Positions 7,391-34,480 of a DNA stretch of 37,233 nucleotides are shown here, in pieces. The notes under the pieces were generated by a model, which searched no databases, was not told the DNA's origin, and saw only the letters and a program-made list of their open reading frames with translations. Where the stretch lies: positions 1-37,233 of the forward strand of contig JBBTVB010000006.1 in assembly GCA_038063455.1 (NCBI GenBank), read 5' to 3'. The DNA is from Patescibacteria group bacterium. GTDB taxonomy: Bacteria; Patescibacteriota; Patescibacteriia; PEXW01. Position 1 is the first letter of the stretch, and each line of letters begins with the position of its first letter. The position numbers and the translations under genes are program-made.

Positions 7391-7544
7391 CACGTATTGA
7401 TAGCCCTTTCTGGCAGCAGAAAGGGCACAAAGACTGCTGGGGGCCTGCGACGGAACACTGGAAGCAAAAGGAATAATACGTATGGGATGCTTCCGGCGCA
7501 GTCCCCCAGACCCCAGAGTACTAAAGGTACCCTCTCTATAAGGG
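7391..7544 (-). repeat. Dispersed structured repeat, copy A
   Basis: Minus strand CCCTTATAGAGA..GGGGTCTGGGGG-[variable]-CCCCCAGCAGTCTTTG-GCCCTTTCTG/CAGAAAGGGC hairpin-ATACGT; closely matches 34315-34480. Confidence 0.85.
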
Positions 7545-7573
7545 AAAAAGGAAGTATGCATTGAGAGTATTCA

Positions 7574-7710
7574 GGGGTGCAGGGGGTGATCGCTGAGCCA
7601 CGGTTTAGTGAGTTTTCATTGCTTCCCGGGTGCGAATCGAGCACCCCCTGCTGGTGTCTTTGGGCACCACCCTTTCTTGCCACGAAGAAAGGGTGGTATA
7701 TCCGTGCTCA
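7574..7710 (+). repeat. Dispersed structured repeat, copy B
   Basis: GGGGTGCAGGGGGTG-[variable]-CACCCCCTGC, TCTTTGGGC linker, ACCACCCTTTCTT/AAGAAAGGGTGGT hairpin; same architecture as copies A and C. Confidence 0.8.
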
Positions 7711-7796
7711 TACATCACGTTCTCGATATCCATGACTTCGTTGTTCAGAATCAACACGAGTATCATTAAAAAATCTCAATCCACTAATGTATATAA

Positions 7797-7997
7797 TTAC
7801 TTCTCCAAACGTTGCAAACGCTTTGCTCCCAGAAAAGTTACGAGCATTGCACCCCACACTGGCAACAGGAATGGCTTGAGCGGGGCGTACCACAGGCTAG
7901 CAAACGTACAGGCTACCGCTATAACCAAAAGCGCCAAGGCACATTTTGCCAGAACTTTTTTGCGCGTGCGCAAACGCTGGAGAAGTTGCTCGTCCAT
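7797..7997 (-). CDS. Small hypothetical membrane protein with two hydrophobic segments
   Basis: 66 aa; hydrophobic stretches ALALLVIAVACTFASLW and FLLPVWGAMLVTFLG flanked by basic residues. Confidence 0.5.
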   Translation of the reverse strand: MDEQLLQRLRTRKKVLAKCALALLVIAVACTFASLWYAPLKPFLLPVWGAMLVTFLGAKRLQRLEK

Positions 7998-8033
7998 TAC
8001 TATCTCATTATTGTGTGAACCTAAACTAATCCC

Positions 8034-8058
8034 AAAAACCGCCTAGGAGGCGGTTTTT
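8034..8058 (-). terminator. Intrinsic terminator, potentially bidirectional, overlapping the stop of the 60-aa ORF
   Basis: AAAAACCGCC-5 nt-GGCGGTTTTT perfect inverted repeat with A/T tracts. Confidence 0.7.
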
Positions 8059-8225
8059 GAGTTGAGCTGGTCGTATTTCTTAATAAGCGCCCGCTGGTCT
8101 TCGCTGGCCTTCCGAATAACCCGTTTAAATAACTTCTTCTTTTCTGCCGAGGAAGCATTACGAAAGAAGTCCGAAAAGTCATTCTCGGGCTTGGATTTGC
8201 CTAGTAATTTTCGGAAAAAGTCCAT
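8043..8225 (-). CDS. Small basic helical protein, partner of the zeta-toxin-like gene (putative antitoxin)
   Basis: 60 aa, FSDFFRNASSAEKKKLFKRVI; starts 5 nt after the zeta-like gene stop. Confidence 0.7.
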   Translation of the reverse strand: MDFFRKLLGKSKPENDFSDFFRNASSAEKKKLFKRVIRKASEDQRALIKKYDQLNSKTAS

Positions 8226-8230
8226 AATGG

Positions 8231-8944
8231 CTACTGAATCAATCCTTCTAAGACTTCTTGAGTATACTGGGAATCAAGGTAAGGGTCAAGGGTGTTAACA
8301 TTTAATTCTAAATTTTCTAAGACCTGTTCCTTAGAAATATCCTTAACAACCACATTCAATTGAATGTCCGAACCAAACTGTTTTTTCACCTGTCGAATAT
8401 TCGCAATAGAGGTGAGGTACGCTTTAATAAAAACATCTCTTGTTACCCTTCTGTGTTCTAACTCCTCACGCTTATTTGTAAAATCCCAAGCAACAACTGG
8501 ATCCTGATACACATAATAAATGTCCACTTTTCGCTTATGATTGAGCGCACGTTTAATATTCATCACAGCGCCTTGGTAGGCAAAAGTTCCGTCAAGAATG
8601 AAATTGTAGTTTTTTCGAAAAACATGATTGAGCAGCATATCCACACCTCTGACCGCGGCATGCTGGTATATGTGTGCGTGACTACCTCTATAGCCAGGGA
8701 TAGACTCCCGTATCTCATCCGCGTCAATACGAACAGGTTTGCTTTTGAACTCTTCAGAAAGGTGTTTCGAGACTTCTGTTTTTCCTGCACCTGGTGCACC
8801 GGCCATAAATAAGGCAACAGCTTTATCAGCGGCCGTAAATTGATGAGGGTTTGCAAATTTTTCTATAAGCTCAGATTCTTTGCCTTTAATAATAGCAAAT
8901 GCCTCGTCGGCAATTCTTTGTTCATCCAGGCTTAGGTCGGGCAT
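8231..8944 (-). CDS. Zeta-toxin family P-loop kinase
   Basis: FMAGAPGAGKTE (Walker A), RIDADEIRE, FILDGTFA, AWDFTNKRE..RRV; AT-richer than the flanking alaS. Confidence 0.85.
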   Translation of the reverse strand: MPDLSLDEQRIADEAFAIIKGKESELIEKFANPHQFTAADKAVALFMAGAPGAGKTEVSKHLSEEFKSKPVRIDADEIRESIPGYRGSHAHIYQHAAVRGVDMLLNHVFRKNYNFILDGTFAYQGAVMNIKRALNHKRKVDIYYVYQDPVVAWDFTNKREELEHRRVTRDVFIKAYLTSIANIRQVKKQFGSDIQLNVVVKDISKEQVLENLELNVNTLDPYLDSQYTQEVLEGLIQ

Positions 8945-8954
8945 GCAAAATTAA

Positions 8955-10802
8955 TTACTCCCCCACTACCGCCTTAATGCGTCGGATACCAGCCGAGACG
9001 GACTTCTCGGACACAATTTTGAAGCTTTTGAGCTCGCCAGTGTGTGTGACGTGTGGGCCACCGCAGAGCTCTTTGGAATAGCTGCCGACACTGTATACGG
9101 TCACGCGCTCCGGGTATTTCTCTTTGAAAAATGCGAGCGCGCCGGCGGCCTTGGCTTCGTCAAACGACATTTCCGCTTTGGTCACGGGCAAATCCTCGTG
9201 GATTTTGGCGTTCACAATTGCTTCCACCTGCATAATCTGCTCGGGCGTGAGTTTGGTGGGGTAGGTAAAGTCAAAACGCAGACGCTGGGCATTAATATCT
9301 GAACCGTCTTGGTGCGCGTCGTTACCCAGTACATCGCGCAAGGCTTGCTGCAATAAGTGGGTAGCGGTGTGCAGCCGAGTCATCACGGTACGCTCGTCGT
9401 CAGACAAGCTGGCGCTATTCAAGCCGTGGCCCCCGAATTTTGCCACCACCCCGGCGCGCGAGGCAGAACGGTGCTTGTCCAGCTCAGCTTCCACTTCCGT
9501 GTCGTCAAACACGAAGCCTTTTTGCTTGAGCTGGTCAAAGGTGGAGCCATACGTAGTAAAAAGTTGGACCGCCGCTTTGCCGGTAATTTGGATGTGCGAC
9601 ATGCCGGCCTGGCCTTCATGCTGCGCTAAGACATCTTCTTTCGGTAATTGTTTGAGCAGCTTGTCGATGCTGACGAGTCGGACCTTTTCATAGTTCCCGT
9701 ACTCTTTTTGAAAATCTTCCAATATCGCCCCGCGTTTTTCCATAATTTCGGGGTAGGCCTGGCCATACTCTTTAATAACCGCATCGACCACCACGGCAAG
9801 ATCAAAGCCATGGTTCAGGTACTGGTCGCACGCGCGGCGGAACACTCGACGCAAAATGTAACCTTGCTCTTTGTTACTGAATCGCACTTCATCTCCACGC
9901 AAAAACACCGAGGCTTTAAAGTGGTCGCTGGCAATGCGCAAACGTCGGCTGTCTTCCAGGCCATTCCCAGTGAGGCCAAAGTGTTTGTCTTTTTGTAATA
10001 CCTCAATAATTGGCAGAAACGCTTCGGTTTGAAAAACGCTATCCACCCCTTGCACGACCATGGCCAAACGTTCCAGACCCATGCCCGTGTCAATGTTTTT
10101 CATGGGCAGAGGCACGTACTCCCCTTTCTCGGTTTTTTCGTACTCGGTCATGACCAAATTCCAAACTTCCACAAAGCGGCCGCAGTCGCAGGTGTTGGGC
10201 AAGCACTTGGCGCCTTTGTCGCAGGGTTCGCCGGTGCGGTCGTAGTGCAACTCGGACGACGGGCCGCACGGCCCAGTCTTGCCTGGCGGACCCCAGAAGT
10301 TGGATTCGTGGTTAAAGCCGGCGATGCGTTCTTTGGGCAAGTGCGCCTGCCAGAGTTTTGCCGATTCGGTATCCGTCGCCACGTGCGGCGCATTCTTCTT
10401 GGGGTGGCTGTCGGCGTGGTAGTAGGTGGCCCACAACCGTTCGGGGTTAAGGTGGACCTGCTTGGTGACAAACTCCCAGGCAAAAGCAATGGCTTCTTTT
10501 TTAAAGTAGTCGCCCACGCTGAAGTTGCCGAGCATTTCGAAAAAGGTCAGGTGGGTGGTGTCGCCTACCTCGTCGATGTCCGAGGTGCGGAAACACTTTT
10601 GCACGCTGGCTAGCCGGCGGGATTTAAGATCGGACTCGGGGTCACGTTCGCCCAAAAAGTAGGGCTTGAACTGTTGCATCCCGGCCGTGGTAAGAAGCAC
10701 GGTGGGGTCGTTCTGCGGGATGAGCGAGGACGACAAAATGACCACGTGCTTGTGGGCCTCGAAGTAGTGTAGGAATTTGGTACGGATGTCGCGGAGGTGC
10801 AT
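8955..10802 (-). CDS. alaS: Alanine--tRNA ligase (short form, no C-Ala domain)
   Basis: LLTTAGMQQFKPYF, VQKCFRT, HLTFFEMLGNFS, GPCGPSSE, IDTGMGLER; editing motifs HTATHLL and ELCGGPHV; ends at GIRRIKAV. Confidence 0.97.
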   Translation of the reverse strand: MHLRDIRTKFLHYFEAHKHVVILSSSLIPQNDPTVLLTTAGMQQFKPYFLGERDPESDLKSRRLASVQKCFRTSDIDEVGDTTHLTFFEMLGNFSVGDYFKKEAIAFAWEFVTKQVHLNPERLWATYYHADSHPKKNAPHVATDTESAKLWQAHLPKERIAGFNHESNFWGPPGKTGPCGPSSELHYDRTGEPCDKGAKCLPNTCDCGRFVEVWNLVMTEYEKTEKGEYVPLPMKNIDTGMGLERLAMVVQGVDSVFQTEAFLPIIEVLQKDKHFGLTGNGLEDSRRLRIASDHFKASVFLRGDEVRFSNKEQGYILRRVFRRACDQYLNHGFDLAVVVDAVIKEYGQAYPEIMEKRGAILEDFQKEYGNYEKVRLVSIDKLLKQLPKEDVLAQHEGQAGMSHIQITGKAAVQLFTTYGSTFDQLKQKGFVFDDTEVEAELDKHRSASRAGVVAKFGGHGLNSASLSDDERTVMTRLHTATHLLQQALRDVLGNDAHQDGSDINAQRLRFDFTYPTKLTPEQIMQVEAIVNAKIHEDLPVTKAEMSFDEAKAAGALAFFKEKYPERVTVYSVGSYSKELCGGPHVTHTGELKSFKIVSEKSVSAGIRRIKAVVGE

Positions 10803-10807
10803 ATAAT

Positions 10808-11539
10808 TTATATGGTAATCATTTCATCATCCTGTGCCACCCACGCGCCAGGGAAAGCGGCTTGGATTTCTGCGCTAATGGCAGGATATCGCGGGTCAGT
10901 ATGGATAAGGCCCAAGCGCGGGGCACCAGCAGCTTTCGCCAGGTCGGCCACAATCTGTGGGTACGAATGGCCTTCCAGCTTGGCACGTTCGGCGTGGGCG
11001 CTGTCATAGTTACATTCATGCAACAGGACGCCGCAGCCTTTGAAAAAATCTGCATTAGCGGGGTCGGCCGTGGTATCCGTACTTATGCCAATGCGGTTTT
11101 GACCACTAGAAAAAGTGAAGAGGTTAGAAAAGCCGCTGGCGTGGGGAACTTGCCGCCGACGAATCTGTAAACCGCGAATCTCGGTTTCCGTGCCCATCTG
11201 CTCCATAGCAACAGGTAAGGATGCGCCCAAATATTCCGGGCTAAAGGGTTCCCGAAAAAATGTAGCTAGCTCGGTAATACGCTCGTCTGCAAGAATGCGT
11301 ACGAATCGAAATTGGCCACTCTCCAAAAAATTATTAATGGCCGCTAAACCAATAATGTGGTCGTGGTGGAAATGTGACAAAATAATGGCGAGCTCTTGCT
11401 GCGGTGCGCTCTCTGGCAGTGCGAGCAAACCCAAACCCCCATCCAGCACCACTTGGTGCTCGGGGAAAAAAATGGAAAGTGAGCGGCCGCCGCGTAAACG
11501 TAGTGGGTAGGCACCGGCACCAAGAATCTGCACCTGCAT
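10808..11539 (-). CDS. MBL-fold metallo-hydrolase (RNase Z/BN-like)
   Basis: LDGG, SHFHHDHIIG (HxHxDH), STDT, LHEC, GHS, LIH; start moved to MQVQILGAGA to avoid overlap with the divergent gene. Confidence 0.85.
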   Translation of the reverse strand: MQVQILGAGAYPLRLRGGRSLSIFFPEHQVVLDGGLGLLALPESAPQQELAIILSHFHHDHIIGLAAINNFLESGQFRFVRILADERITELATFFREPFSPEYLGASLPVAMEQMGTETEIRGLQIRRRQVPHASGFSNLFTFSSGQNRIGISTDTTADPANADFFKGCGVLLHECNYDSAHAERAKLEGHSYPQIVADLAKAAGAPRLGLIHTDPRYPAISAEIQAAFPGAWVAQDDEMITI

Positions 11540-11578
11540 AGTCGTGGAAGGCAAATGAAGTACGGTATACTGCATATC

Positions 11579-12334
11579 ATGATGCACCGCAGGCAAACCG
11601 TCAAAACCCCGTTTGGCAGCATCCACAGCTTGAGCAGCGGTACAGGCGCACCTGTGGTTTTTCTCCACGGCTGGAGCGCCGACGCCCGAACCTGCACAGC
11701 TTTGCTGGACTGCTTAGCAACGGTCTACCAGGTCACCATTCCAACACTCCCCGGCTGGCATCCATCGTACTCGCTGGAGGGTGATGCCGACCCCACCCAC
11801 GCCTTCCAAGCCCTGGGCGACTGGCTGGATGCCACGGGCCTGCGGGATGTAACCCTAGTTGGCCACTCGCTCGGTGGGGTAGCGGCCGTCAACCTGTGCG
11901 CGCAACGGCCAGCCGTGATTTCTCGCGTAGTACTGGTCGACACGGTGGGTGTACCTATTGTGCGCGACCATGCCAGTTGGAAAAAAATGTGGTTGCAAAA
12001 ACGCCTGCGCATGTACAAAGCGTACGGTCCAAACGTGGTCACTCGCCTGGACCGAGCGTTGCTCAAGCATACCCTCATCCGCAAAAAACATCTGGGCCGC
12101 ATGTCGCGCTATGCACGGACGGCAGACGTACTGCCGTTGCTAGATCGAATTACTCTCCCGGTGGAATTTGTGTGGGGTACGGACGATGCCTACACGCCTA
12201 TGAGTACTGCCCGCACCATGGCCGAGCACTGCAAAAAGTCTAGCATCATCGAAGTACCGGGCGACCATGACTGGCCGCTCTTCACGCCCGACGTGCTACT
12301 AGGGTATCTCATGAGCCACCATTACCAAAAATAA
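11579..12334 (+). CDS. Alpha/beta fold hydrolase
   Basis: VVFLHGW, LVGHSLGG nucleophile elbow, VWGTDDAY, GDHDW. Confidence 0.9.
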   Translation: MMHRRQTVKTPFGSIHSLSSGTGAPVVFLHGWSADARTCTALLDCLATVYQVTIPTLPGWHPSYSLEGDADPTHAFQALGDWLDATGLRDVTLVGHSLGGVAAVNLCAQRPAVISRVVLVDTVGVPIVRDHASWKKMWLQKRLRMYKAYGPNVVTRLDRALLKHTLIRKKHLGRMSRYARTADVLPLLDRITLPVEFVWGTDDAYTPMSTARTMAEHCKKSSIIEVPGDHDWPLFTPDVLLGYLMSHHYQK

Positions 12335-12336
12335 AT

Positions 12337-12364
12337 ACCGCCTCTGTAAAATTACAGAGACGGT
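12337..12364. terminator. Hairpin terminator between convergent genes
   Basis: ACCGCCTCTGTAA-AA-TTACAGAGACGGT with one mismatch; followed by a T-rich stretch on the minus strand. Confidence 0.65.
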
Positions 12365-12388
12365 GGACTTGGTTAATGAAAAACCAGT

Positions 12389-13138
12389 TTATACACTGAG
12401 CCGAAACACAACGCGTTTCCCCTTTTGTAATGCAAGCAACGCCTGCTCAGCTGGAGTAAATGCTGCACACCGACTTTCTAGCGATGTAAAGGCGGATTCA
12501 CCTTGCGTGCGCCCCACATCCGTTAGAATCGGATCGAGCACTGCATGGCATTGCTCTTCCCAGTGATTATAAAAGTTATCGGGCGATCCCCAAACTTTCC
12601 ACAAATCAACAAGGTCACCCTGGTAGTCAATTGACACAAAAATAGTGCGATCTTGAGTTACCTTAAAGCGAGTACCCCACTTCCATGCATCTACACGAGT
12701 GTAAATATGCTCCTGCCATGGTAAGCCAATGTGCGGTGCAAGTGGTGCTATAGCATAGGCCGCTGAAGGGCTATTATCTGGCACAACAATCGCCTCAAAA
12801 TCGGTCGAGGGAACATACACGAATAGGCTCATGACTAAAGAAAACGAGAAGGCTAATGATGCTAGCGCAACCAGGTTTCCACCTACAATTCGGACTTCTC
12901 TTACGACTTGAAACCTTGTTGAATACGCATCTTGAAAAAATAAACTGCCAATAATAAGGCATGTTGCCAAAATAAGACCGCAGCCTAGCACCCAACTGAA
13001 AAACCCATTGAGCATATAACTCCGGGTGAATGCAAACGCACCAATGACTAGCAAAATGACTGCACTTCCTAGGCTGATGATGCTAATTTGAGCACTGCGT
13101 TCGCTTATTTTTTTGAATAAATTGGAAAAGAACTGCAT
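12389..13138 (-). CDS. Hypothetical membrane protein (about 3 N-terminal TM helices plus a soluble domain)
   Basis: 249-aa ORF with hydrophobic N-terminal half; GGAGG SD and its own promoter upstream. Confidence 0.7.
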   Translation of the reverse strand: MQFFSNLFKKISERSAQISIISLGSAVILLVIGAFAFTRSYMLNGFFSWVLGCGLILATCLIIGSLFFQDAYSTRFQVVREVRIVGGNLVALASLAFSFSLVMSLFVYVPSTDFEAIVVPDNSPSAAYAIAPLAPHIGLPWQEHIYTRVDAWKWGTRFKVTQDRTIFVSIDYQGDLVDLWKVWGSPDNFYNHWEEQCHAVLDPILTDVGRTQGESAFTSLESRCAAFTPAEQALLALQKGKRVVFRLSV

Positions 13139-13187
13139 GAAATCCTCCAGTTTTAAGAGTTTTGTGGTCTATTTTTCTAACAATACC

Positions 13188-13216
13188 AGCCTAGAATCCG
13201 AATCAACGAGTGTCAA
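13188..13216 (-). promoter_or_regulatory. Sigma70-type promoter of the 249-aa orphan
   Basis: TTGACA-17 nt-TAGGCT. Confidence 0.6.
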
Positions 13217-13223
13217 TAGAGAC

Positions 13224-13625
13224 TCACGCGGCATCCAACGCCTGATTCACCAAGGCATCGGCTTGCGCGTTTTGCTCGCGCGGGATGTGACTAAACGTAA
13301 CCTTGGTAAACTCCTGCGCCACATTCCACACTTTTGTAAAAAGTTTTGCAAGGTTAGCGTCTTTGACCTTATAGTTTCGATTCAATTGTTCCACGACGAG
13401 CAGGCTATCTAGCTTGCAGTCCACCTGGCTAGCACCAAGTTTTTTAGCGCACGTTAAGCCGTGGAGCAGCGCCATGTACTCAGCGACATTGTTCGTGGTC
13501 TCGCCAATAGTTTCACCATGCGCTGCCACGACGGCCGTGCCGTCCTTGAGCACGTAGCCAATGGCCGCCGGCCCAGGGTTGCCGCGTGCGCCACCGTCAG
13601 TACATAGCGTGAGATGCTTCGACAT
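13224..13625 (-). CDS. rnhA: Ribonuclease HI family protein
   Basis: TDGGARGNPGPAAIG, TNNVAEYMAL, LDSLLVVEQL, HIPREQNAQADAL. Confidence 0.93.
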   Translation of the reverse strand: MSKHLTLCTDGGARGNPGPAAIGYVLKDGTAVVAAHGETIGETTNNVAEYMALLHGLTCAKKLGASQVDCKLDSLLVVEQLNRNYKVKDANLAKLFTKVWNVAQEFTKVTFSHIPREQNAQADALVNQALDAA

Positions 13626-13628
13626 AAA

Positions 13629-19669: not shown

Positions 19670-20206
19670 GTGCAAATACTCTTCGTTCCTTCGGGAGGCA
19701 TTACTCCTGTAGATCAACTCTCACCTGCAAATACCCTTCAACGGTGTATAAAGGCCTTGCAGCTCTGGCAGAATGGAACCTATCATATTCTCATCCTAAG
19801 CGGGGGCATCTGCGACCCGCCAAGTATACAGAGGACTGCGGGTGCCGAAATCATGAGGCGCTGGTTCGTAGAGCGTGGCGTTCCTGAAAAACGAATCATC
19901 ACGGAATCACACTCTCGGGATACATATGAAAATATTATCCTTAGTGTAAGGCTCTTGAAAAACCTCGTTCCGCACAATCAAACACACCATTGGACTGTCG
20001 TATCGCAGTGGCAACGCTGCCTACGTATCTGGATAACCCTCTGGCGTTTACACCGTATTCGCCCAAAGCTCCAGATGCTCCGGTATCCCATCGGTATCAG
20101 AGGATTCCTCAAAGAATGTGTTTTCATTGCGTACCACCTGTACGATCGTGATGGCAATAAGTACCTTGCACGAAAAAACCGCAGCCGGCGATCATTCGCT
20201 TCTTGA
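19670..20206 (+). CDS. YdcF/ElyC (DUF218) family protein
   Basis: LILSGG, AEIMRRWFVERGVPEKRIITESHSRDTYENI. Confidence 0.85.
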   Translation: MQILFVPSGGITPVDQLSPANTLQRCIKALQLWQNGTYHILILSGGICDPPSIQRTAGAEIMRRWFVERGVPEKRIITESHSRDTYENIILSVRLLKNLVPHNQTHHWTVVSQWQRCLRIWITLWRLHRIRPKLQMLRYPIGIRGFLKECVFIAYHLYDRDGNKYLARKNRSRRSFAS

Positions 20207-20236
20207 CCTGACATATCACATATGTCAGGTTTCTTT
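20206..20236 (+). terminator. Intrinsic terminator
   Basis: ACCTGACATAT-CAC-ATATGTCAGGT followed by TTCTTT. Confidence 0.7.
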
Positions 20237-20272
20237 ATTGTAAATACCTGTGGCTGAATATTTATACGAAAT

Positions 20273-20305
20273 AAAAAATGGCTCCCATACAAGTATGGAA
20301 GCCAT
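20273..20305 (-). terminator. Intrinsic terminator for the small minus-strand ORF
   Basis: Minus strand ATGGCTTCCATAC-TT-GTATGGGAGCCAT followed by a T-tract. Confidence 0.65.
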
Positions 20306-20335
20306 CAAACACCACAGTTTGGTCAAACGATTTTT

Positions 20336-20515
20336 TTATTTTGTCCGCTTGCCCCTGCTAAAACTCCTTTGGCGTTGCACAGTTTCACTCTGGGAAACAC
20401 CTGTCGCCACGGTCAGCCTTTCAAGCGGTGAAAGGAGTCTTTTTGCAGCCCGAGGAACGAAATGAGATTTCGCGAATGCGCGATTTTCAGCTCTAGACAG
20501 ATCCCTGTTATTCAC
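20336..20515 (-). CDS. Small basic orphan protein, 59 aa
   Basis: GTG start 7 nt after AAGGAG; (M)NNRDLSRAENRAFAK...SRGKRTK; upstream TTGACA-17-TACAAA and a downstream terminator. Confidence 0.5.
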   Translation of the reverse strand: MNNRDLSRAENRAFAKSHFVPRAAKRLLSPLERLTVATGVSQSETVQRQRSFSRGKRTK

Positions 20516-26690: not shown

Positions 26691-26721
26691 AAGAGCGGGC
26701 ACTCAGTGTTCGCTCTTTTTT
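26691..26721 (+). terminator. Intrinsic terminator of purK
   Basis: AAGAGCGGGCAC-TCA-GTGTTCGCTCTT-TTTT. Confidence 0.75.
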
Positions 26722-26750
26722 AATTCATCTCAAGGGGTGCGAGACTAACA

Positions 26751-28655
26751 CTACTCCACCACCACACCCATATTGCCGAGCAATGCCCAGTCGGCTAGGA
26801 AAGCTGCTTTAGAAAAGCGCTTCTCACCGTAGAGCGGGTCCAGGGTGATAATAGAACTCGGGTTGCTGGCCGAACCAACAAAGCCAATGACTACGCGGGT
26901 GTGCTCCCCCACAATGGCCAGCACGGTTTTACCGGTTAGGGTTTTCCAATCCACGCGCCTGCCGGATGCGCCATTGCCCCAGACAATAACCGGGTTGCCG
27001 GCTTTTATCTCGGTGAGCAAGTCAGTAAGATTACCGTTTTTAAAGGCACGGGTTTTTCGGTACGCACTCCCCGCTTTTGCAATCGGCGCAGCATACACGC
27101 CGTAACCTGTCCCCGGCTGCTGCCCGTCAATATTCCCGACAAAGGCCACATCGGGGTCACCCCACACCCCATTTTTCTTCGGCGTGGGATCCACGCCAAT
27201 GGCTTTGATAATTGGCGCCTCGCCGACGTTGATGCCACGATAGCGCAGGGCCATAACCAACGTGGCAATCTCGCAACTCAACGCGTGATCTTGCCGGTGG
27301 AACGGCACCGCAAGCCTGGTGGTGGCGCGCTCGGTGGTAAACCGCACAACAATGTCGTCCGCTGATGGGAAACCCGCATTACCAACCACACCCTTCGTGA
27401 AGGTTGCGGTATACGTGGTATCAAACGCCAAATCTTTGTTGGGATTAAAGTTCAGCGTATTCCTCTGCCAGGTTATTACCCCCTGGATGGTGGGGCTGAT
27501 ACGTACACGCTTGGCGGCATCCGCCTGATCGACGGGTTGATCAAAAGTGAAATGCAACGTGCTACCCACGCGGATGCCGCTGGTCGCGTTCGCGGGCGCG
27601 CTGGTTGCGAGCACCACTGGGCCAATAGTACTAAACGCGCTGGTTGCATCGGCTGGCAAAAACCCGCCGGCTTTGGTCCGGAGCGCACTGGCAAGCTTGA
27701 ACGTATACGCGGTGCGTTGCAGCAACGGCTCGTGCGCCAAGCTAAAGGTGAGGCCATCGCTCGTCGTCCACTCCCCCACGACCGGGGGCGTGAGTGCAAT
27801 TGCTTTGGTAAACACCTCAAGGTCTGCGGTCTCAGTAAGTGTAACGGCGATGGGCGTGGTAAGTAACTGGTTCGTGCCCTGCGGCGAAAAGGCGGCAACG
27901 CCTGCGGCCGTCCGGACATTCCAGGCTTGTGAAAAAACTTCTTGCGCTTCGCCTTGCTCGGCAACTTCGGACGTGCCAAAAACCAGCTGCTGCGCGCTGC
28001 GCTGAACGTGCAATTGTACGGGTACACCTTGGGGCAAGAGCTGCGCCGGGGTGACGACAAAGTGTAGCTTGTCTTCCGTCGGCGCAACGAGCAGCGGCAA
28101 CGCCGGCTCGGTAGCAAAGCTAAAAGCAACCGTCTCGTCCGCTGGTCGGTCGAGCGTCACCCGCCAAGAAGTGTCCGCCGAGATTGGCGTATCTGCACTT
28201 GGCGTAATACTGACGACCTTCGGTACCGCTGCGGTGGTAAAGCTAAAGCTCTGTTCCGTACTCGAACGCAACCCTGGAATGGCACTTTGCACATCAGCTA
28301 GCGAAACACGATACGTTGTGCCTGGCTCCCAAGTGGTGGTGGGGGTGAAGGTAGCGCGGCGATACAGGCTGTTGCCGAATAGCGGCTGGCTGTAGCGAAG
28401 CTCGCCATCAATGTGCGGCGTCGCCGTCACGCGCAGGGTGCGGGCTACCGGCACGATGAAATTGAAGACTACTGGTTGCGTCACAGCCAGCAGATTGTCC
28501 GCACCCAACGGGGCAAGCGTTGGGCGGGGCTGAACAAAAACAAACAAGCTCGCAACCAGCACGAGCACTGGGACAACCAGCAACACGCGTCGTGGCCCGT
28601 GATGGCGTCGGATGTACTGCGTGGCTGCAGGAAATGGCACGGCCGCTGCGTCCAT
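26751..28655 (-). CDS. Membrane-anchored protein with tandem Ig-like (Big_5-type) domains and a C-terminal C39-like cysteine peptidase
   Basis: N-terminal TM helix; repeated P..G....FTFDQPVD / LAFDTTYT / FTT modules; QDHALSCEIATLVMAL...EHTRVVIG...LDP (Cys-His-Asp). Confidence 0.8.
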   Translation of the reverse strand: MDAAAVPFPAATQYIRRHHGPRRVLLVVPVLVLVASLFVFVQPRPTLAPLGADNLLAVTQPVVFNFIVPVARTLRVTATPHIDGELRYSQPLFGNSLYRRATFTPTTTWEPGTTYRVSLADVQSAIPGLRSSTEQSFSFTTAAVPKVVSITPSADTPISADTSWRVTLDRPADETVAFSFATEPALPLLVAPTEDKLHFVVTPAQLLPQGVPVQLHVQRSAQQLVFGTSEVAEQGEAQEVFSQAWNVRTAAGVAAFSPQGTNQLLTTPIAVTLTETADLEVFTKAIALTPPVVGEWTTSDGLTFSLAHEPLLQRTAYTFKLASALRTKAGGFLPADATSAFSTIGPVVLATSAPANATSGIRVGSTLHFTFDQPVDQADAAKRVRISPTIQGVITWQRNTLNFNPNKDLAFDTTYTATFTKGVVGNAGFPSADDIVVRFTTERATTRLAVPFHRQDHALSCEIATLVMALRYRGINVGEAPIIKAIGVDPTPKKNGVWGDPDVAFVGNIDGQQPGTGYGVYAAPIAKAGSAYRKTRAFKNGNLTDLLTEIKAGNPVIVWGNGASGRRVDWKTLTGKTVLAIVGEHTRVVIGFVGSASNPSSIITLDPLYGEKRFSKAAFLADWALLGNMGVVVE

Positions 28656-28661
28656 GGGGCG

Positions 28662-30263
28662 TTAGGAAAGTAAGTTGCGACCCGTCATGTCTGGGGGCAC
28701 GGGTAAACCTAAGGTTTCCAGCACCGTCACGGCGACATCAGCCAGAATGCCAACCGGCTGCACGCTATTCAAGGCTTCCACCCCGCCCGGCAGCTGGTAG
28801 GGCGACGCGTCTTTCCACTGATTCGCCACTGCAATAAACGGGACGGGACTGGTGGAATGTTCTTTATCAATAGCGCCGGTTTGCAAGTTGAGCAACTCTT
28901 CGGCGTTGCCGTGGTCGGCGGTAATGTACAGCACGCCGTCTGCCGCCAGGACTGCATCCGTCAACTGGCCCAGGCACTCGTCGAGCACTTCCAGTGCCTC
29001 AATGGTCGCCTGAAAATTTCCGGTGTGCGCCACCATGTCAGCATTGGCGTAGTTAACCACGTAAAAGTTGTACGCGCCGGCATTGAGCTCTTGCACTAGG
29101 CGGTTAGTAATGTCTCGTGCCGCCATCGCGGGTTTCTGGTCGTAGCTGGAGACGTGCGGGCTGGGAATGAGTGCGTGGTCTTCACCAGGGTAGGCTTGCT
29201 CGTGGCCGCCATTAAAAAAGTAGGTTACGTGCGCGTACTTTTCGGTTTCCGCAATGTGCAACTGCTTGAGCCCTCCCTCCGAAATAACTTTTGCTACCGG
29301 CGAGGCAATATCTTCGGGCGGGAAAGCGACAGTGACCGGTAAATCTTTGTCATATTCGGTCATCGTCACAAAGACCAGGTGCTGCAGGTACGTGCCACGG
29401 TCAAATTTCTCAAAGCCGGGCAGCACGAACGCCTTGGTCAGTTGGCGCATGCGGTCGGGCCGGAAGTTAAAGGTAATCACGCTGTCACCATCCTGAATCT
29501 TCCCAACGGGCTGGCCCGAAGCATCAGTGATGACTGTCGGCGCAAACTCTTCGTCCAATACGCCTTTGGCATAGCTGGCGCGAATCAAGGCCAGGGGGTC
29601 GGAGCCTTTCTCTGGCGACTCACCAAACACCATGGCCCGGTAAGCTTTTTCCTCGCGCTCCCACCGATTATCGCGGTCCATGCCCCAAAAACGACCAATC
29701 ACCGTGGCAATTGCCCCGACACCCACTTCCTTCATGTGGGCCTGAAGTTTACCAATAAAATTTTCTGCGCTCTTCGACGGCGTATCGCGGCCGTCTAAAA
29801 ATGTATGGATGAACACCTCGTGCACGCCCTGCTGCTTGGCCAACTCCAGCAAGGCGTACGCGTGCTCGTTAAAACTATGCACGCCGCCAGAGCTCATCAA
29901 GCCCACCAGGTGCAAGCGCGATTTTTTTTGCTGGACATTTTCAATGGCGCTAAGAAACGCCGGGTTGGTAAAAAAACTCCCGTTGGCAATGGCCCGGTTA
30001 ATCCGCGGCAAACTCTGGTAGACAATTTTACCCGAGCCCAGATTCATGTGGCCGACTTCGGAGTTACCCATCTCGCCCCACGGCAAGCCAACGGATTCGC
30101 CCGACGCTTGCAAGGTCATGGCCGGGTAGTGCGCGACGAGCTCGTCGTAGTGCGGCAATTTGGCAATGGTATAGGGGTTGCTGCGGCTGGGTGGCGCCAC
30201 GCCCCAGCCGTCCAGCACCACCAGGACCAGCGGGCGCAAAGCTGGGTTCGTAGGGTCAGGCAT
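28662..30263 (-). CDS. gpmI: 2,3-bisphosphoglycerate-independent phosphoglycerate mutase (paralog 2)
   Basis: LDGWG, GNSEVGH, GGVHS, DGRD, NFRPDR, AETEKYAHVT, ADMVAH, TADHGNAE. Confidence 0.96.
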   Translation of the reverse strand: MPDPTNPALRPLVLVVLDGWGVAPPSRSNPYTIAKLPHYDELVAHYPAMTLQASGESVGLPWGEMGNSEVGHMNLGSGKIVYQSLPRINRAIANGSFFTNPAFLSAIENVQQKKSRLHLVGLMSSGGVHSFNEHAYALLELAKQQGVHEVFIHTFLDGRDTPSKSAENFIGKLQAHMKEVGVGAIATVIGRFWGMDRDNRWEREEKAYRAMVFGESPEKGSDPLALIRASYAKGVLDEEFAPTVITDASGQPVGKIQDGDSVITFNFRPDRMRQLTKAFVLPGFEKFDRGTYLQHLVFVTMTEYDKDLPVTVAFPPEDIASPVAKVISEGGLKQLHIAETEKYAHVTYFFNGGHEQAYPGEDHALIPSPHVSSYDQKPAMAARDITNRLVQELNAGAYNFYVVNYANADMVAHTGNFQATIEALEVLDECLGQLTDAVLAADGVLYITADHGNAEELLNLQTGAIDKEHSTSPVPFIAVANQWKDASPYQLPGGVEALNSVQPVGILADVAVTVLETLGLPVPPDMTGRNLLS

Positions 30264-31821
30264 GGGGGGTGCAGAATAAGCTGGAGCCAGTCATGGTCTC
30301 GGGTTTTTTTACCGCCATAATATTCAGGATGGTAGGCGCAATGTCCGCCAGGCGGCCGGATTTTTTGAGCGCGAGTTTACGGTATTGTCGGTTGACGTAA
30401 ATGAACGGCACGGGGTTGGCCGAGTGCTCAGTGTCGACCTCGTGGGTGCGCAGATTTTTCAACTCTTCAATATTGCCATGGTCTGCAGTAATAACCAGGG
30501 AACCGTTGACTGCGAGTACCGCACGACGTAGCTGCCCCAACGCCGCGTCAACCGCTTCCACCGCAGCAATCGACGCCTGCAAGTGCCCAGTGTGCGCCAC
30601 CATGTCTGGCGCCGCAAAGTTTAGCGCAATAAAGTCGTGGGACTTTTTTCGGATAGCGGCCAGCACGGTGCGTACCAAAGCAGCCGTCGACATGGCTGGT
30701 TTCATGTCGTAGGTAAGCACCTTGGGTGAAGGGATAAGCACGCGGTCTTCACCGGCCACGGGGTGGTCGTACCCACCGTTGAAAAAGTACGTCATGTGGG
30801 CGTACTTCTCGGTTTCCGAAACGTACAGCTGGCGGTACGCGGTGAGCGCCATGGGCAAGGTGTCTGGAATGTCACGGCTGGGGAATGCCGAGAGCACGCC
30901 GGGCAAGTCTGGACCAAAGTCCGTCATAGCAACAAAAACGAGATTCTTCAAAACTTTGGTGCGTCGAAAACCTTTAAAGTGCGGTTGGACAAAAGCTTTG
31001 GTAAGTTGCCGCGCGCGGTCACTGCGTAAGTTGAAAAAAATAATTGAATCGTTGCTACCAACGGTCATGGGCTTTTCTTTCTCGCCAGCCACCGTCGTGG
31101 GCCGGATAAATTCGTCGCTCTCATTACGGTTGTACGCTTCTAAAATTGCAGTTTCCGCACTCTCGCTGCGCTGGCCAGCACCAAGGGTGAGTAGGTCGTA
31201 GGTCTGCTGAATACGGCTCCAGTGCTGGGCGCGGTCCATGGCGTAGTACCGCCCGGTCACGCTGGCAATGCGCGTGCCGTTGAGTGTGCGTTCCATTTTC
31301 TTCAAGAGTTTAATGGCCGCAAACCGCGGACTATCCCGCCCGTCCGTAAACAAATGCAAGGCCACGCGCGGCAGCTTGGAGAGCTGTGCGAACGTGAGCA
31401 AAGCTAGCAGGTGATCTGGGTTGGCATGTGCGCTCTGGCTGTTGCCCAGCATGCCCATGAGGTGCAAAGTGGACTTGTGCTTGCGCACGTGCGTGACGGC
31501 CCGGATAAACGCAGGATTACGAAAAAAGCTGCCATCACTTATATCGTGCGAAATGTAAATCGTATCCTGCAACACCACCCTGCCGGCACCAATATTCAAA
31601 TGCCCGGCTTCGGAGTTGCCATCCTGACCTTTACCTAAGCCCACATCTTTGCCGCCCGCATGCAGCTGCGTGTGCTGGTACTGGCGCAGCAGCGCACTGT
31701 AGTTGGGGGTTTTGGCCAGTGCAATGGCATTGCCCGGTCCAGGTTTGGCAATCCCCCAGCCGTCCATGATTGCCAAAACAACTGGCAGCTGCGGTTTAAA
31801 AATGGGACAGCGCTCACGCAT
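30256..31821 (-). CDS. gpmI: 2,3-bisphosphoglycerate-independent phosphoglycerate mutase (paralog 1)
   Basis: MDGWG, GNSEAGH, DGRD, GRYYAMDR, NLRSDR, ETEKYAH, PDMVAH, TADHGNIE; start set at MRERCP overlapping the eno stop. Confidence 0.95.
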   Translation of the reverse strand: MRERCPIFKPQLPVVLAIMDGWGIAKPGPGNAIALAKTPNYSALLRQYQHTQLHAGGKDVGLGKGQDGNSEAGHLNIGAGRVVLQDTIYISHDISDGSFFRNPAFIRAVTHVRKHKSTLHLMGMLGNSQSAHANPDHLLALLTFAQLSKLPRVALHLFTDGRDSPRFAAIKLLKKMERTLNGTRIASVTGRYYAMDRAQHWSRIQQTYDLLTLGAGQRSESAETAILEAYNRNESDEFIRPTTVAGEKEKPMTVGSNDSIIFFNLRSDRARQLTKAFVQPHFKGFRRTKVLKNLVFVAMTDFGPDLPGVLSAFPSRDIPDTLPMALTAYRQLYVSETEKYAHMTYFFNGGYDHPVAGEDRVLIPSPKVLTYDMKPAMSTAALVRTVLAAIRKKSHDFIALNFAAPDMVAHTGHLQASIAAVEAVDAALGQLRRAVLAVNGSLVITADHGNIEELKNLRTHEVDTEHSANPVPFIYVNRQYRKLALKKSGRLADIAPTILNIMAVKKPETMTGSSLFCTPHA

Positions 31822-33073
31822 GCGCTTCGAGCCAAATTTCGAGAAGGCGGTTGTACTTGGCCAAACGTTCACCCCGGCTCATGGAGCCGGCTTTTAGCCC
31901 ATCCGCGCCTACGGCCACAGCGAGGTCGGCAATGGTGGTGTCGGTGGTTTCGCCTGAACGGTGCGACACGATAATTTTGTAGCCGTGCTTTTGCGCCAAC
32001 TGAATGGTGGCAATGGTTTCTGAAAGGGTGCCAATTTGGTTGACCTTAACCAGGATGGCATTGCCAACCTTGGCATCGATACCTTTTTGGAGGCGTTCTA
32101 CATTGGTCACGAACAAGTCATCGCCCACCACCCACATACCAGCAGCGGCCAGGGCTGTGGTGTGGCTCGGCCAGTGATCCCAATCATCTTCGGCTAAACC
32201 ATCTTCCACCGAGAAAAGATGATACTTTTGGTGCCACTCTACATACAGCGCAGTCAGTTGATCGGCCGAAAGCCCTTTGCCTTCCAGCAGCAGCGGGTAC
32301 GTGCCGTCAGGTTTGGCAAGTTCGCTCGCTGCTGCATCCATAGCCAGCAGCACATCTGACCCTAGGCCATAGCCGGCGCTAGCAACCGCCTCGGCCAGAA
32401 GTTGCAACGGCTCTTCGTTGGTACGCATTTTCGGGGCGTAGCCGCCTTCGTCACCAACGAGGGTGGAAAGCGCTTTGCCTTTGAGAACGCTGCCGAGGGT
32501 GTGAAAAATTTCAGCTGTGCAGCGGAGCTGGTCTGGAAACGAAACTTGCTGCGGCACCAGCATGAACTCTTGAAAGCTTAAGCCCGAGTCTGGCGCGTGC
32601 ACGCCGCCATTGATCACATTGCAAAATGGTTTGGGGAAAGTTGTGGGTACAGTCAATCCGTACTGCTGCTGCAAGAACAGGTACAGCGGCGTGCCGGCCG
32701 CAACAGCCGCCGCCCGGGCAGCCGCCAAAGAAACGCCAAGAATTGCATTGGCACCGAGTTTGGATTTGTTTGGCGTGCCATCAAGGGCAATAAGCGTTTC
32801 ATCAATTTTTCGCAGGTCAGCTACTGGCATGCCAACCACAGCGCTTGCAATGGGGCCAGTGACATTACCGACCGCTTGCAGCACGCCTTTGCCGCCAAAC
32901 CGTTTGGCATCGCCATCGCGCAATTCTAGTGCTTCGTGGCTGCCCGTGGACGCGCCAGACGGGACCGCTGCCGTACCTGTGCTGCCGTCATCCAGCCGAA
33001 CCGTAACTTGCAGGGTCGGGTTGCCGCGGGAGTCGAGAATTTCCAGTGCTTCGATAGTCGATAGAGTCGCCAT
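31814..33073 (-). CDS. eno: Enolase
   Basis: EILDSRGNPT, VPSGASTG, LGANAILGVS, QEFM, GDEGG, VKVNQIG, SHRSGET, ERLAKYN. Confidence 0.98.
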   Translation of the reverse strand: MATLSTIEALEILDSRGNPTLQVTVRLDDGSTGTAAVPSGASTGSHEALELRDGDAKRFGGKGVLQAVGNVTGPIASAVVGMPVADLRKIDETLIALDGTPNKSKLGANAILGVSLAAARAAAVAAGTPLYLFLQQQYGLTVPTTFPKPFCNVINGGVHAPDSGLSFQEFMLVPQQVSFPDQLRCTAEIFHTLGSVLKGKALSTLVGDEGGYAPKMRTNEEPLQLLAEAVASAGYGLGSDVLLAMDAAASELAKPDGTYPLLLEGKGLSADQLTALYVEWHQKYHLFSVEDGLAEDDWDHWPSHTTALAAAGMWVVGDDLFVTNVERLQKGIDAKVGNAILVKVNQIGTLSETIATIQLAQKHGYKIIVSHRSGETTDTTIADLAVAVGADGLKAGSMSRGERLAKYNRLLEIWLEAHA

Positions 33074-33075
33074 AG

Positions 33076-34248
33076 CTATGCGGTGTTGAGAAGTGGAGTG
33101 AGCCCCGGCAAAGGTTTGCCTTCGAGAAATTTTAGCATTGCGCCGCCGCCAGTAGAGAGGAAAGTAAATTTTTCACCAAGCTGCAGTTCGTTAATCGCAT
33201 CCAATGTCTCGCCGCCGCCCGCAATGGTGCTAGCGGCCAAGCCAGCTACCACTTTCGCTATCGCATCAGTACCTTTGGCAAAAGCTGGGAGTTCAAAGTA
33301 ACCCATGGGTCCATTCCAAACAACCATGGCCGCGGTTTTAAGAATGTCTGAGTACAGCTCTACCGTCTCTGGCCCAATGTCCAGAATCAAATCCTCGTCG
33401 GGGACATTTGCAACTGCCACCGTAGTGGTATGCGCACTAGATTCTGCTTTAGCCGCCATAACCACATCGACCGGCACGCGAAGCTTGTTGGTGGTTAGCG
33501 AGAGGTCGCGCACGCTCTCAACCATATTTTCTTCGATGAGTGATTTCCCCACGGCAATGCCTTGCGCTTTCAAAATGGTGTTGGCTAGCGCACCGCCGAG
33601 CAGCACGTAGTCACAATGTTCCAGTAGGGTGCGGATGACTGGTAACTTCGTCGAAATTTTTGCGCCACCGATAATTGCCACTAAAGGCCGTTTCGGCTTT
33701 TCAATAATTTCACCCAAGAAGGCGACTTCTTTTTGCAGTTGGAAACCGGCCCCGGATGGAAGCAATCGCGGGAGGGTAGAAACCGATGCCGCTTTGCGAT
33801 GCGCAACGGAGAAAGCCTCGCTCACTACTAGCTCGCCCATATTTGCCAAGCTCATGGCAAAAACCTTGTCGTCGGCCTGCTCGCCTGGATGAAATCGCAG
33901 ATTCTCAAAAAGTGTCACGTCGCCAGGCCGAAGTTTTTGGCTGCGTACTGTCGCCTCGGGCGTACCCGGTATTTCCGGGGCAAACTGCACGTTCGGCAGC
34001 CGTTCGGCCAAGTAGTCAAAAACCTGCCGCAAACTCAAGTGTGTATCGTCTGGGTTATTCGGTTTGCCTAAGTGGGTAAGCAGAACAATCCGGCAACCTT
34101 GCTCGCGCAAGTACTGGATGGTAGGCATGGCCGCATCTATCCGCGTGGCATCGCACACCTTGCCCTCGCGGCAGGGCACGTTAAAATCCACGCGCACAAT
34201 TACTTGGCGGCCGGCAACATCCAGATCCTGCAATTTTCGCAGTTGCAT
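33076..34248 (-). CDS. pgk: Phosphoglycerate kinase
   Basis: VRVDFNVP, ENLRF, AHR, GGAKISTK, DIGP, WNGPMG, GGGET, STGGGAMLKFLEG. Confidence 0.97.
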   Translation of the reverse strand: MQLRKLQDLDVAGRQVIVRVDFNVPCREGKVCDATRIDAAMPTIQYLREQGCRIVLLTHLGKPNNPDDTHLSLRQVFDYLAERLPNVQFAPEIPGTPEATVRSQKLRPGDVTLFENLRFHPGEQADDKVFAMSLANMGELVVSEAFSVAHRKAASVSTLPRLLPSGAGFQLQKEVAFLGEIIEKPKRPLVAIIGGAKISTKLPVIRTLLEHCDYVLLGGALANTILKAQGIAVGKSLIEENMVESVRDLSLTTNKLRVPVDVVMAAKAESSAHTTTVAVANVPDEDLILDIGPETVELYSDILKTAAMVVWNGPMGYFELPAFAKGTDAIAKVVAGLAASTIAGGGETLDAINELQLGEKFTFLSTGGGAMLKFLEGKPLPGLTPLLNTA

Positions 34249-34254
34249 GGAGTT

Positions 34255-34263
34255 ATTATACCA
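34255..34263 (-). promoter_or_regulatory. Extended -10 element (TGGTATAAT) 6 nt upstream of the pgk ATG; leaderless-type promoter
   Basis: Perfect TGnTATAAT with no SD; the same geometry recurs at other core genes. Confidence 0.65.
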
Positions 34264-34314
34264 AAAAAATCCACTTTTGGCGACCGGATATCCAAGTCAA
34301 TCGTAAGTATATAA

Positions 34315-34480
34315 CCCTTATAGAGACTGATTTTTTAGAACTTCCTGGGGGTCTGGGGGTTCGAGAAGCGGACCTTGGGGATACAATCTTAGATATGCCT
34401 ACGCTGGGCACGCGTTCGAGAACCCCCAGCAGTCTTTTGGCACCACCTTTTCTGCTGCACAGAAAAGGTGGTGGATACGT
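34315..34480 (+). repeat. Dispersed structured repeat, copy C
   Basis: CCCTTATAGAGA..GGGGTCTGGGGGTTC-[variable]-GAACCCCCAGCAGTCTTTTGG, then a 14-bp hairpin CACCACCTTTTCTG/CAGAAAAGGTGGTG, then ATACGT. Confidence 0.85.

Follow-up and report, generated by a model that had tools for sequence, protein, structure and literature searches.

What are the three look-alike non-coding sequences that lie dispersed among the housekeeping genes of a groundwater member of the Patescibacteria: genes, signals or genomic parasites? They stand in the first 37,233 nucleotides of contig C6 (C6:1-37233; this whole stretch is called the window below) of the source genome G000, which comprises 850,625 bases on six contigs and is 87% complete. 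An earlier note, written from the letters of the window, had described them as a structured RNA or single-stranded DNA family, either mobilised in trans or carrying a variable guide segment. Our comparisons indicate that the three copies are part of a larger complement in this genome and, beyond it, of a family of strand-specifically folding elements, uncatalogued in Rfam 15, that appears to extend across Patescibacteria. We read these elements tentatively, at somewhat less than even chances, as portable cassettes each carrying a small-RNA gene. This reading is favoured because of the strand-specific covariation, the conservation of orthologous copies above the level of their flanks, the recurrence of an upstream box in unrelated lineages and the independence of the element from its neighbour genes. 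The comparisons show the family, its fold and strand specificity, its distribution, gain and loss, mosaicism and conservation above the flanks; transcription, the ends of the RNA, the way in which copies spread and the molecular function are inferred.

The element and its copies

A covariance model built from the ten copies of the source genome (R1; alignment A3) returns 22 matches in that genome, which resolve into ten full-length copies (107-195 bits; unit about 188 nt), three weaker matches (39-44 bits) to a second repeat family and nine reverse-strand matches on the palindromic parts. The three copies of the window, here A, B and C, are real members of this set (107-180 bits, E 3e-29 to 9e-51), with single-sequence fold z-scores against shuffles of -3.5, -4.2 and -4.9. 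The count of three in the earlier note has to be raised to ten, and the unit ends that it gave fall short: the true 3' ends lie further out, at 7338, 7759 and 34534, beyond a third hairpin (M3) that had been overlooked. The ATACGT or ATCCGT that it placed behind the second hairpin is present, but is really the start of M3. The other shared motifs that it named, namely the G-run, CCCCCWGC, GTCTTT and the hairpin, are all found at the mapped coordinates, as is the upstream sequence common to copies A and C. The features of the window copies, and the remaining full copies of the genome, are as follows.

7338..7516, minus strand: copy A, full element, beta subfamily (R1 132.8 bits, E 9e-37; fold)
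7572..7759, plus strand: copy B, full element, alpha subfamily with a CUGAGC...GCGAAU core (R1 107.2 bits, E 3e-29; synteny)
34346..34534, plus strand: copy C, full element, delta subfamily (R1 180.3 bits, E 9e-51)
7517..7571, strandless: 55-nt spacer of the head-to-head A/B pair, holding the mapped upstream boxes of both copies, TTAGTAC at 7518-7524 (minus), CCCTTATAGAGA at 7533-7544 (minus) and TGAGAGTA at 7562-7569 (plus)
34315..34345, plus strand: upstream boxes of copy C, CCCTTATAGAGA at 34315-34326 and TTAGAAC at 34335-34341, the latter 6 nt before the G-run
7503-7514 (minus) and 34348-34359 (plus): G-run motif GGGGTCTGGGGG; 7574-7586: G-run motif GGGGTGCAGGGGG
7428-7443 (minus), 7644-7663 and 34423-34439: CCCCCWGC..GTCTTT
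34348..34431, plus strand: P1 clamp stem of copy C, GGGGUCUGGGGG...CCCCCAGCA, with a core of roughly 60 nt (fold, covariation)
34432..34442, plus strand: U-rich linker of copy C, GUCUUUUGGCA, directly 3' of P1 (T/C/T/T/T columns invariant)
34443..34473, plus strand: M2 hairpin of copy C, CCACCTTTTCTG-CTGCA-CAGAAAAGGTGG (fold, covariation); counterparts of the type CCYTTTCT..AGAAARGG at 7399-7428 in A and 7667-7698 in B
34478..34523, plus strand: M3 hairpin of copy C, CGTAGCTGACC...TTCGTCGTCACG (fold; weaker pairing); counterparts at 7349-7394 (minus) in A and 7703-7748 (plus) in B
Contig C2: full copies at 20156-20343 (plus), 42713-42902 (minus), 83761-83950 (plus) and 199349-199536 (plus)
Contigs C3 and C4: full copies at C3:30406-30593 (plus), C4:5731-5917 (plus) and C4:16993-17180 (minus)

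Read 5' to 3', the element opens with GGGGUYUGGGGG, continues through a subfamily-specific inner helix to an apex of 35-55 nt and returns through CCCCCARC, which closes P1; the linker GUCUUUKG, which becomes GUUUUUG(G) in AT-rich lineages, is followed by M2 and then by M3. M2 is a palindromic hairpin of 11-6-11 layout (CCACCYUUUCUG-4 nt-CAGAAARGGUGG) that a pattern search of G000 finds only within the ten copies, and M3 consists of CGUGAYUGACC, a loop of ~27 nt and UUCGUYGUYAYG (TTCGTYGTYAYG as 3' arm). P1, M2 and M3 are mutually dissimilar. Behind many copies stands M4 (GATYCC...GGRATGACA), a small hairpin repeat in its own right, of which G000 has 13 strict-pattern sites, some of them away from the element; these sites, for example C2:281281-281352, C1:30344-30471 and C3:61171-61272, often form convergent or divergent doublets.

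The second repeat family has three copies, at C6:63711-63815 (26 kb past the end of the window), C3:14441-14563 and C2:252777-252889. It is built on another G-rich/C-rich stem, GAGCCCTGCGCAGTCCCG..CGGGACGGAGCAGTCGTGGCCGGGGTAGGGGG...GGCCTTCGAAACTCTGAACCCCCTGGCCCC, lacks M2 and shares the terminal M3 and M4 modules; reversed 5' fragments of it adjoin the full copies at C2:42713-42902 and C4:16993-17180. In copy B, an ATG in the 3' strand of M3 opens a frame of ~104 codons (7734-8046, plus strand) without a Pfam match, which tblastn aligns to the related genome G005 at 67% over 93 amino acids, an alignment that includes the element itself. The idea of a type I toxin was set aside, as no small open reading frame (ORF) is conserved and the ATG within M3 occurs in some copies only.

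No named family accounts for the element, and the earlier note had likewise recognised none: with Rfam 15 the window as a whole yields nothing at gathering thresholds, and all eight matches up to E 10 lie outside copies A, B and C. Nor does ARAGORN detect a tRNA or tmRNA gene anywhere in the window. Literature searches on the G-run and M2 strings return unrelated papers only, and the titles and abstracts of work on structured or small RNAs of these candidate phyla radiation bacteria hold nothing on such an element.

Selection on a strand-specific fold

Pairing was counted in an alignment of 57 copies from nine genomes (A5). Standard pairs fill 90.5% of its paired cells, as against 77.7% after column shuffles and 48-54% with slid partners, figures that carry a bias toward pairing because the alignment was fitted to the covariance model. 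Changes on both sides are seen in 27 of 38 pairs. The covariation signal comes mostly from P1, where both sides change in 10 of 13 pairs, and from the outer half of M2: the G5/C5 clamp and the inner M2 pairs barely vary, the outer M2 pairs covary, and pairing in M3 is weaker (74-80% of cells). The compensatory change in the first stem on which the earlier note had relied, CTGGGGG/CCCCCAG against CAGGGGG/CCCCCTG, is real. Differences between copies gather in the loops and leave stems and linkers unchanged. Moreover, G-U cells number 224 and A-C cells 20, or 114 and 20 without the invariant outer GGG/UCU helix. Because G-U cells so far outnumber A-C cells, it is the annotated strand that folds, whether as RNA or as single-stranded DNA, in agreement with the kind of family that had been proposed. 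Taken with the compensatory changes, this points to a structure under strand-specific selection.

The near-invariance of part of M2 invites a different reading, in which the palindrome is a DNA site bound by a dimeric protein, for instance a single Xer-type recombinase or a regulator, and the rest of the element is accessory. Sites of the dif type are 28 bp long with an 11-6-11 layout. M2 likewise measures 28 bp in this layout, its inner 7 bp are nearly invariant around a varying 6-nt centre, and G000 encodes a single tyrosine recombinase. Yet a site in DNA has no need of strand-specific G-U pairs, which are present in both P1 and M3, and it would leave the covariation of P1 unexplained; we consider this reading very improbable.

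Subfamilies and phyletic distribution

The cores enclosed by P1 sort into five types, alpha, beta, beta-prime, gamma and delta. The alpha type (copy B; CUGAGC...GCUYCC...GCGAAU) is represented by 15 copies from five genomes of the genus and from G009; copy A is of the beta type; and the delta type of copy C has six copies, seen in G000 only. The delta copies have a near-identical scaffold and differ in ~35 apical nucleotides, which lie between conserved UAUAC and CCUAC islands.

With R1, members are detected in all six other genomes of the genus, in eight of the 11 of the family and in 16 of 61 relatives overall, G000 counted; none is detected in G007, G008 or G011. Head-to-head pairs, with the first copy on the minus and the second on the plus strand, are common, with gaps of 39-60 nt (55 nt for A/B); the 15 full-length copies of G006 form six such pairs and three singles. 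A broader model restricted to P1 and M2 (R2; alignment A6) matches 11 of 150 other Patescibacteria genomes evenly drawn from the phylum, concentrated in a few families (three of six genomes of f70; four genomes of f88), and the AT-rich genome G197 alone has 20 R2 matches. Matches below about 35 bits in G083, G179 and G101 consist of an M2-like hairpin alone and were disregarded. Among 185,579 species genomes, a pattern scan picked out 43 loci, and 18 of the 19 that were scored with R2 are full-length matches. By their public records, the pattern loci come from Candidatus Kerfeld-, Falkow-, Magasanik-, Peregrini- and Peribacteria, 'Altimarinota' and the 'Patescibacteria group'; record-derived automatic labels of Gammaproteobacteria and Oscillospiraceae were not trusted, and a Desulfovibrio locus has no match to R2. 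Distant members keep GGGGUCYGGGGG, CCCCCRGCAGUUUUUG and M2 and lack M3.

A repeat of ~170 bp in a metagenome-assembled genome of Planctomycetota, bounded by 24-bp inverted repeats (GGGCAAAATTCACATTGGACACAT), holds the same 28-bp palindrome as M2 (CCACCCTTTCTG-4-CAGAAAGGGTGG; loci L048, L051, L056, L058, L065-L067, L071, L073 and L074). It matches model positions 97-126 alone and shares no other part of the element; the shared palindrome, striking as it is, is probably a case of convergence.

The earlier note had also entertained a scaffold with a variable guide or cargo segment, which would amount to an RNA with a programmable apex directing an unlinked effector. The six delta copies, near-identical except at the apex, are what such a system might look like. 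Because alpha cores are recognisably conserved across species, however, the core is not a slot for arbitrary cargo, and the free-form variability that had been claimed dissolves into subfamilies that orthologs of different species retain. Matches of the apices within their own genome are at chance level (best E 0.14), the whole element has no match in phage records or viral contigs, no TnpB is found in G000, and the Pfam-scanned neighbours include no IscB-, Cas- or IS110-like gene, nor any other candidate effector. A guide scaffold is in our view a far-fetched explanation.

Gain, loss and mosaicism

Comparison of gene boundaries between species shows that sites differ in being occupied or empty, and in the copy that they hold. 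The site between infA and alaS, which carries the A/B pair, is common to G000, G005, G003 and G002; its alpha copy is orthologous in G005 and G003, with a different partner, and the G002 copy was not typed as alpha. The dus site is occupied in G000 and G005, and the site between dksA and the cohesin gene has a single copy in G000 and a pair in G006. Between pgk and the NTP-transferase gene, G000 has a delta copy, G006 a beta copy with two nested small hairpins, G001 the M4 hairpin only and G003 an empty gap of 25 nt. Two delta inserts are specific to G000: the gap between S16 and SMC is 364 nt, as against 51-144 nt in relatives without the insert, the extra block running from about -30 through M3 and M4, and that between PGI and YebC is 280 nt, as against 24-140 nt. 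Conversely, G005, G006 and G003 have a pair or the remnant of one where the G000 genes lie only about 15-20 nt apart.

Within genomes, certain copies, among them copies at different loci of G006, share 100% identity over the whole stretch that begins with the TTAG box and ends with M4, while others are identical in part, with the apex or M3 swapped, which points to recombination between copies. Other repeats enter the element in their turn: a GC-rich hairpin, CCCTCGCACC..GGTGCGGGG, is nested in the M2 loop of two G006 copies (loci L081 and L078), and in one copy the 5' G-run is interrupted by a CCTCCTC..GAGGAGG hairpin, repeats inserting into repeats. Orthologs at syntenic sites retain 65-83% identity over P1 and M2, as against 44-53%, the shuffled level, in the distal flanks. 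For copy B and its G005 ortholog the values are 83% and about 50%, and the 45 nt upstream are 77% identical.

The state of the A/B locus was also followed in groundwater DNA. Contigs over 6300-9300 show no joint, insertion or deletion at A/B, one of them being unchanged across 7379-7977. Inside copy A there is a unitig break at 7440-7457, together with elevated depth over 7411-7511, the behaviour to be expected of repeated sequence; contig joints at 6444-6762 fall in the S13 gene and look like conserved sequence of other organisms.

These patterns bring forward the chief rival of the cassette reading, namely a selfish non-autonomous DNA repeat of the REP/REPIN, ERIC, BOX, Correia or RPE kind, whose hairpins would be recognised by an enzyme supplied in trans, probably on single-stranded DNA, with transcription incidental. 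The patchy spread in the phylum, the bursts (20 in G197, 15 in G006, six delta copies in G000), the G000-specific insertions and the sites empty in G000 yet occupied in three relatives all suit such a repeat, as do the identical G006 copies, the location of copies at contig ends in fragmented assemblies together with the unitig break inside copy A, the hairpin repeats nested in the loops, the random orientation inside G197 operons and the modular build with M3 and M4 swapped. The dispersal of copies and their gain and loss between species bear out the earlier note, and the mobilisation in trans that it proposed may lie behind them. As that note had stated, no transposase, integrase or reverse transcriptase is encoded in the window (41 ORFs scanned with Pfam), and in G000 as assembled (87% complete) there is no match to the Y1/HUH transposases of the RAYT and IS200 kind (PF01797, E 0.01) or to TnpB (PF07282). 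The genome has one reverse transcriptase (C5:122795-123391) and one tyrosine recombinase (C2:217667), the latter not adjacent to any copy; a link to the former was rejected, as a pattern search finds no good M3 on C5.

Furthermore, neither terminal inverted repeats nor target duplications are seen at the boundaries of identical copies or in comparisons of occupied with empty sites, where short target duplications could be missed because the boundaries are old and fuzzy. Dead selfish copies should decay evenly, yet orthologs stand above their flanks and show compensatory substitutions, and P1, the linker and M2 are deeply conserved across classes. A selfish repeat suits the pattern nearly as well as the cassette reading and is possible, at something under one chance in three.

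Upstream boxes and candidate transcription signals

If the element is an RNA gene, its promoter would be sought in the upstream boxes. A box of the TTAGnA type (T-T-A-G-n-A) stands 1-7 nt before the G-run in 53 of the 57 aligned copies, a count anchored by a regular expression of our own making, so that part of this conservation arises by construction. An A-rich TTAnAG-like box (CCCTTATAGAGA) precedes it by about 13 nt, and T-A-n-n-GCA-like boxes are found in other classes with unrelated flanks. By eye, none of the sigma-70, sigma-54 and extracytoplasmic function (ECF) readings of the boxes fits.

At the other end of P1, a hairpin of ~85 nt, GUCUUUUGG comes directly after the G5/C5 clamp and is replaced in AT-rich lineages by 5-7 U. 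This U-rich linker is terminator-like in appearance, although a consensus terminator scan makes no call. Its likeness can be judged against an intrinsic terminator predicted nearby, AAAAACCGCC-TCCT-AGGCGGTTTTTGGG at 8031-8061 on the minus strand (GGCGGTTTTTGGG at 8061-8031), which closes the unit of alaS and a zeta-toxin gene and whose U5GGG tail resembles the linker behind P1. An Hfq/Sm site in the linker was considered and dropped, as no Hfq or LSM gene was found in G000.

Gene neighbourhood

The G000 neighbours are housekeeping genes: infA/S13, alaS, pgk, the NTP-transferase gene, bacA, fpg, dus, RNase T, dnaB, dksA, the cohesin protein gene, PGI, yebC, S16 and SMC. No protein family recurs beside the copies. 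Of the ten G000 copies, nine turn their 5' side to a gene start (six copies), to the partner copy (A and B) or to a piece of the second repeat family (one copy). Six of the ten are directed toward a convergent gene, whose 3' end lies 9-124 nt away, or about 470 nt in the case of B.

This arrangement could be taken to mean that the element punctuates operons in cis, as a terminator, a stabiliser of RNA ends or an insulator with an outward promoter. P1 with its U tract is terminator-like, and the reverse complement of the distal box, CTATAAGGG, resembles a -10 element for the divergent side. Nonetheless, pgk and infA have predicted promoters of their own between the element and the gene: for infA a sigma-70 promoter at 7281-7309 (minus; TTGACA-17-TGnTACAGT), and for pgk one at 34255-34283 (minus) with an extended -10, TGGTATAAT, 9 nt before the ATG, so placed that the pgk mRNA is possibly near-leaderless. 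Related genomes lack the element at the same gene boundaries. In G197, where eight copies are antisense to their co-directional flanking genes, nine co-directional with them and one otherwise placed, both orientations are tolerated inside operons, though the U tract lies on the sense strand only. One strand is selected, as the ratio of G-U to A-C cells indicates, but copies often run antisense to the genes beside them. Punctuation in cis accordingly seems to us improbable.

Several observations concern the neighbouring genes themselves. The listed infA ORF of 142 aa begins too far upstream: its IF-1 domain occupies residues 79-141. Between alaS and copy B lie a gene with a Zeta_toxin domain (8231-8944, minus; E 1.9e-32) and, following it, a 60-aa ORF (8043-8225, minus). 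The G005 ortholog of B stands about 230 nt from alaS, and because no zeta gene is seen at that locus, the toxin gene has the look of an insertion specific to this lineage, next to the A/B pair. The 133-aa product of 13224-13625 (minus) is an RNase H-fold protein and not a reverse transcriptase; its Pfam name, 'RVT_3, reverse transcriptase-like', may mislead annotation. Upstream of enolase and pgk lie tandem paralogs of the cofactor-independent phosphoglycerate mutase (iPGM_N + Metalloenzyme; 28662-30263 and 30256-31872, both minus).

A proposed portable small-RNA gene cassette

Under the cassette reading, transcription would start at the G-run, 1-7 nt behind a -10-type, TTAGnA-like box that lacks a canonical -35. 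The transcript would fold into the long P1 hairpin, with a clamp of five G-C pairs and an apical 35-55 nt specific to the subfamily, and transcription would stop or pause at the U-rich tract directly after P1 (GUCUUUUGG, or GUUUUUGG in AT-rich lineages); the sequence-invariant M2 would come next, along with M3 in this genus. Cassettes would be duplicated to new intergenic sites, often head-to-head with a shared spacer, be lost again and swap segments by recombination, while each resident copy would be under purifying selection for its fold. The RNA would most likely act in trans, as a set of sibling RNAs that either expose a C/U-rich apex or bind a protein via the invariant base of P1, the linker and M2. 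A related possibility, to which we assign a low probability, is a portable RNA gene resembling the short interspersed nuclear elements (SINEs), which would carry its promoter along and spread among intergenic sites and Patescibacteria classes without encoding a transposase, its copies being retained by selection and serving as sibling regulators or decoys with apex specificity and M2 as a handle for the Xer-type recombinase or another host enzyme.

A number of observations weigh against the cassette reading. The patchy spread, with 1 to 20 copies per genome, the sites occupied or empty by species and the identical copies at different G006 loci have the look of a selfish repeat. The two upstream boxes are 12-14 nt apart, which misfits sigma-70 spacing, and scans for sigma-70 promoters and terminators call none for A, B and C; TTGACA and TATAnT hexamers are enriched in the intergenic DNA of G000, and ordinary sigma-70 promoters are therefore in use. 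Some G197 copies take up the entire intergenic gap but for 0-5 nt, so that an external promoter would have no space. The inner seven pairs of M2 are almost invariant in sequence, which also fits a protein site in DNA, and the pairing counts share the bias of the fitted alignment.

Whichever reading holds, the setting makes the family worth attention. In the tiny genomes of Patescibacteria non-coding DNA is very scarce, and still this lineage maintains 10-20 copies of an element of 115-190 nt with a fold preserved by selection; the core motifs are common to Kerfeld-, Falkow-, Magasanik- and Peregrinibacteria, as the public records name them. To our knowledge, almost no regulatory RNAs are known from Patescibacteria; as an RNA gene family, these elements would be among the first candidate trans-acting RNA systems of the phylum. 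As a selfish repeat, they would have spread without a recognisable transposase, pointing to an unknown mobilisation route. In either case the covariance model can be used to annotate the loci, to explain contig breaks in metagenome-assembled genomes and to avoid misreading the copies as riboswitches or leaders.

Comparison with known systems

Two known kinds of element were considered and put aside. A T-box leader came into question because of AGAAAGGGUGGUA..CGUG, but there is no RF00230 match up to E 10, the copies are not in leader position and GGGUGG is paired inside M2. Integron attC sites are marked by RYYYAAC...GTTRRRY core motifs and by arrays of one orientation beside an integron integrase; such motifs are not present in the sequences read, the copies lie between housekeeping genes in both orientations, and none adjoins the single tyrosine recombinase gene.

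Among mobile elements, the PATEs of IS200/IS605, the omega-RNAs of TnpB and the HEARO RNAs of IscB are likewise structured, strand-specific and multi-copy and can persist without an adjacent transposase; the present family differs in having no TnpA or TnpB found in G000, no Rfam match to HEARO or IS605-orfB and no similar hairpins at both ends. Miniature inverted-repeat transposable elements (MITEs) differ by the terminal inverted repeats and target-site duplication that are not seen here. With the REP/REPIN-RAYT systems the family shares multi-copy extragenic hairpins, inverted doublets (six in G006, one in the window) and compensatory change. REPs, however, are 20-40 nt long and accompanied by a RAYT gene, whereas this unit measures 115-190 nt and G000 has no detected Y1_Tnp gene; and the doublets are here full elements set 5' to 5' with arms of different subfamilies, unlike those of REPINs.

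ERIC/IRU of enterobacteria and BOX of Streptococcus pneumoniae are intergenic repeats of 100-200 nt that fold as RNA and stand in either orientation in or between operons; their presence varies between strains, BOX is built of shuffling modules, and we know of no transposase of their own. In intergenic size, folding, use of both orientations, variable presence and, for BOX, modular shuffling they resemble the present family. The latter is set apart by a sequence kept across several classes, a fixed G5/C5 clamp, a U-rich linker, an invariant palindromic hairpin, a conserved upstream box and frequent head-to-head pairs of different subfamilies.

Qrr and LhrC, finally, are sibling small-RNA families, whose paralogous members share a scaffold with C/U-rich exposed regions and are stable in copy number and location. 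The present family differs from them in that no canonical promoter or terminator is called and copies come and go between species. It is like them in its several independently placed copies, shared scaffold, C/U-rich exposed regions and independence from any linked protein gene.

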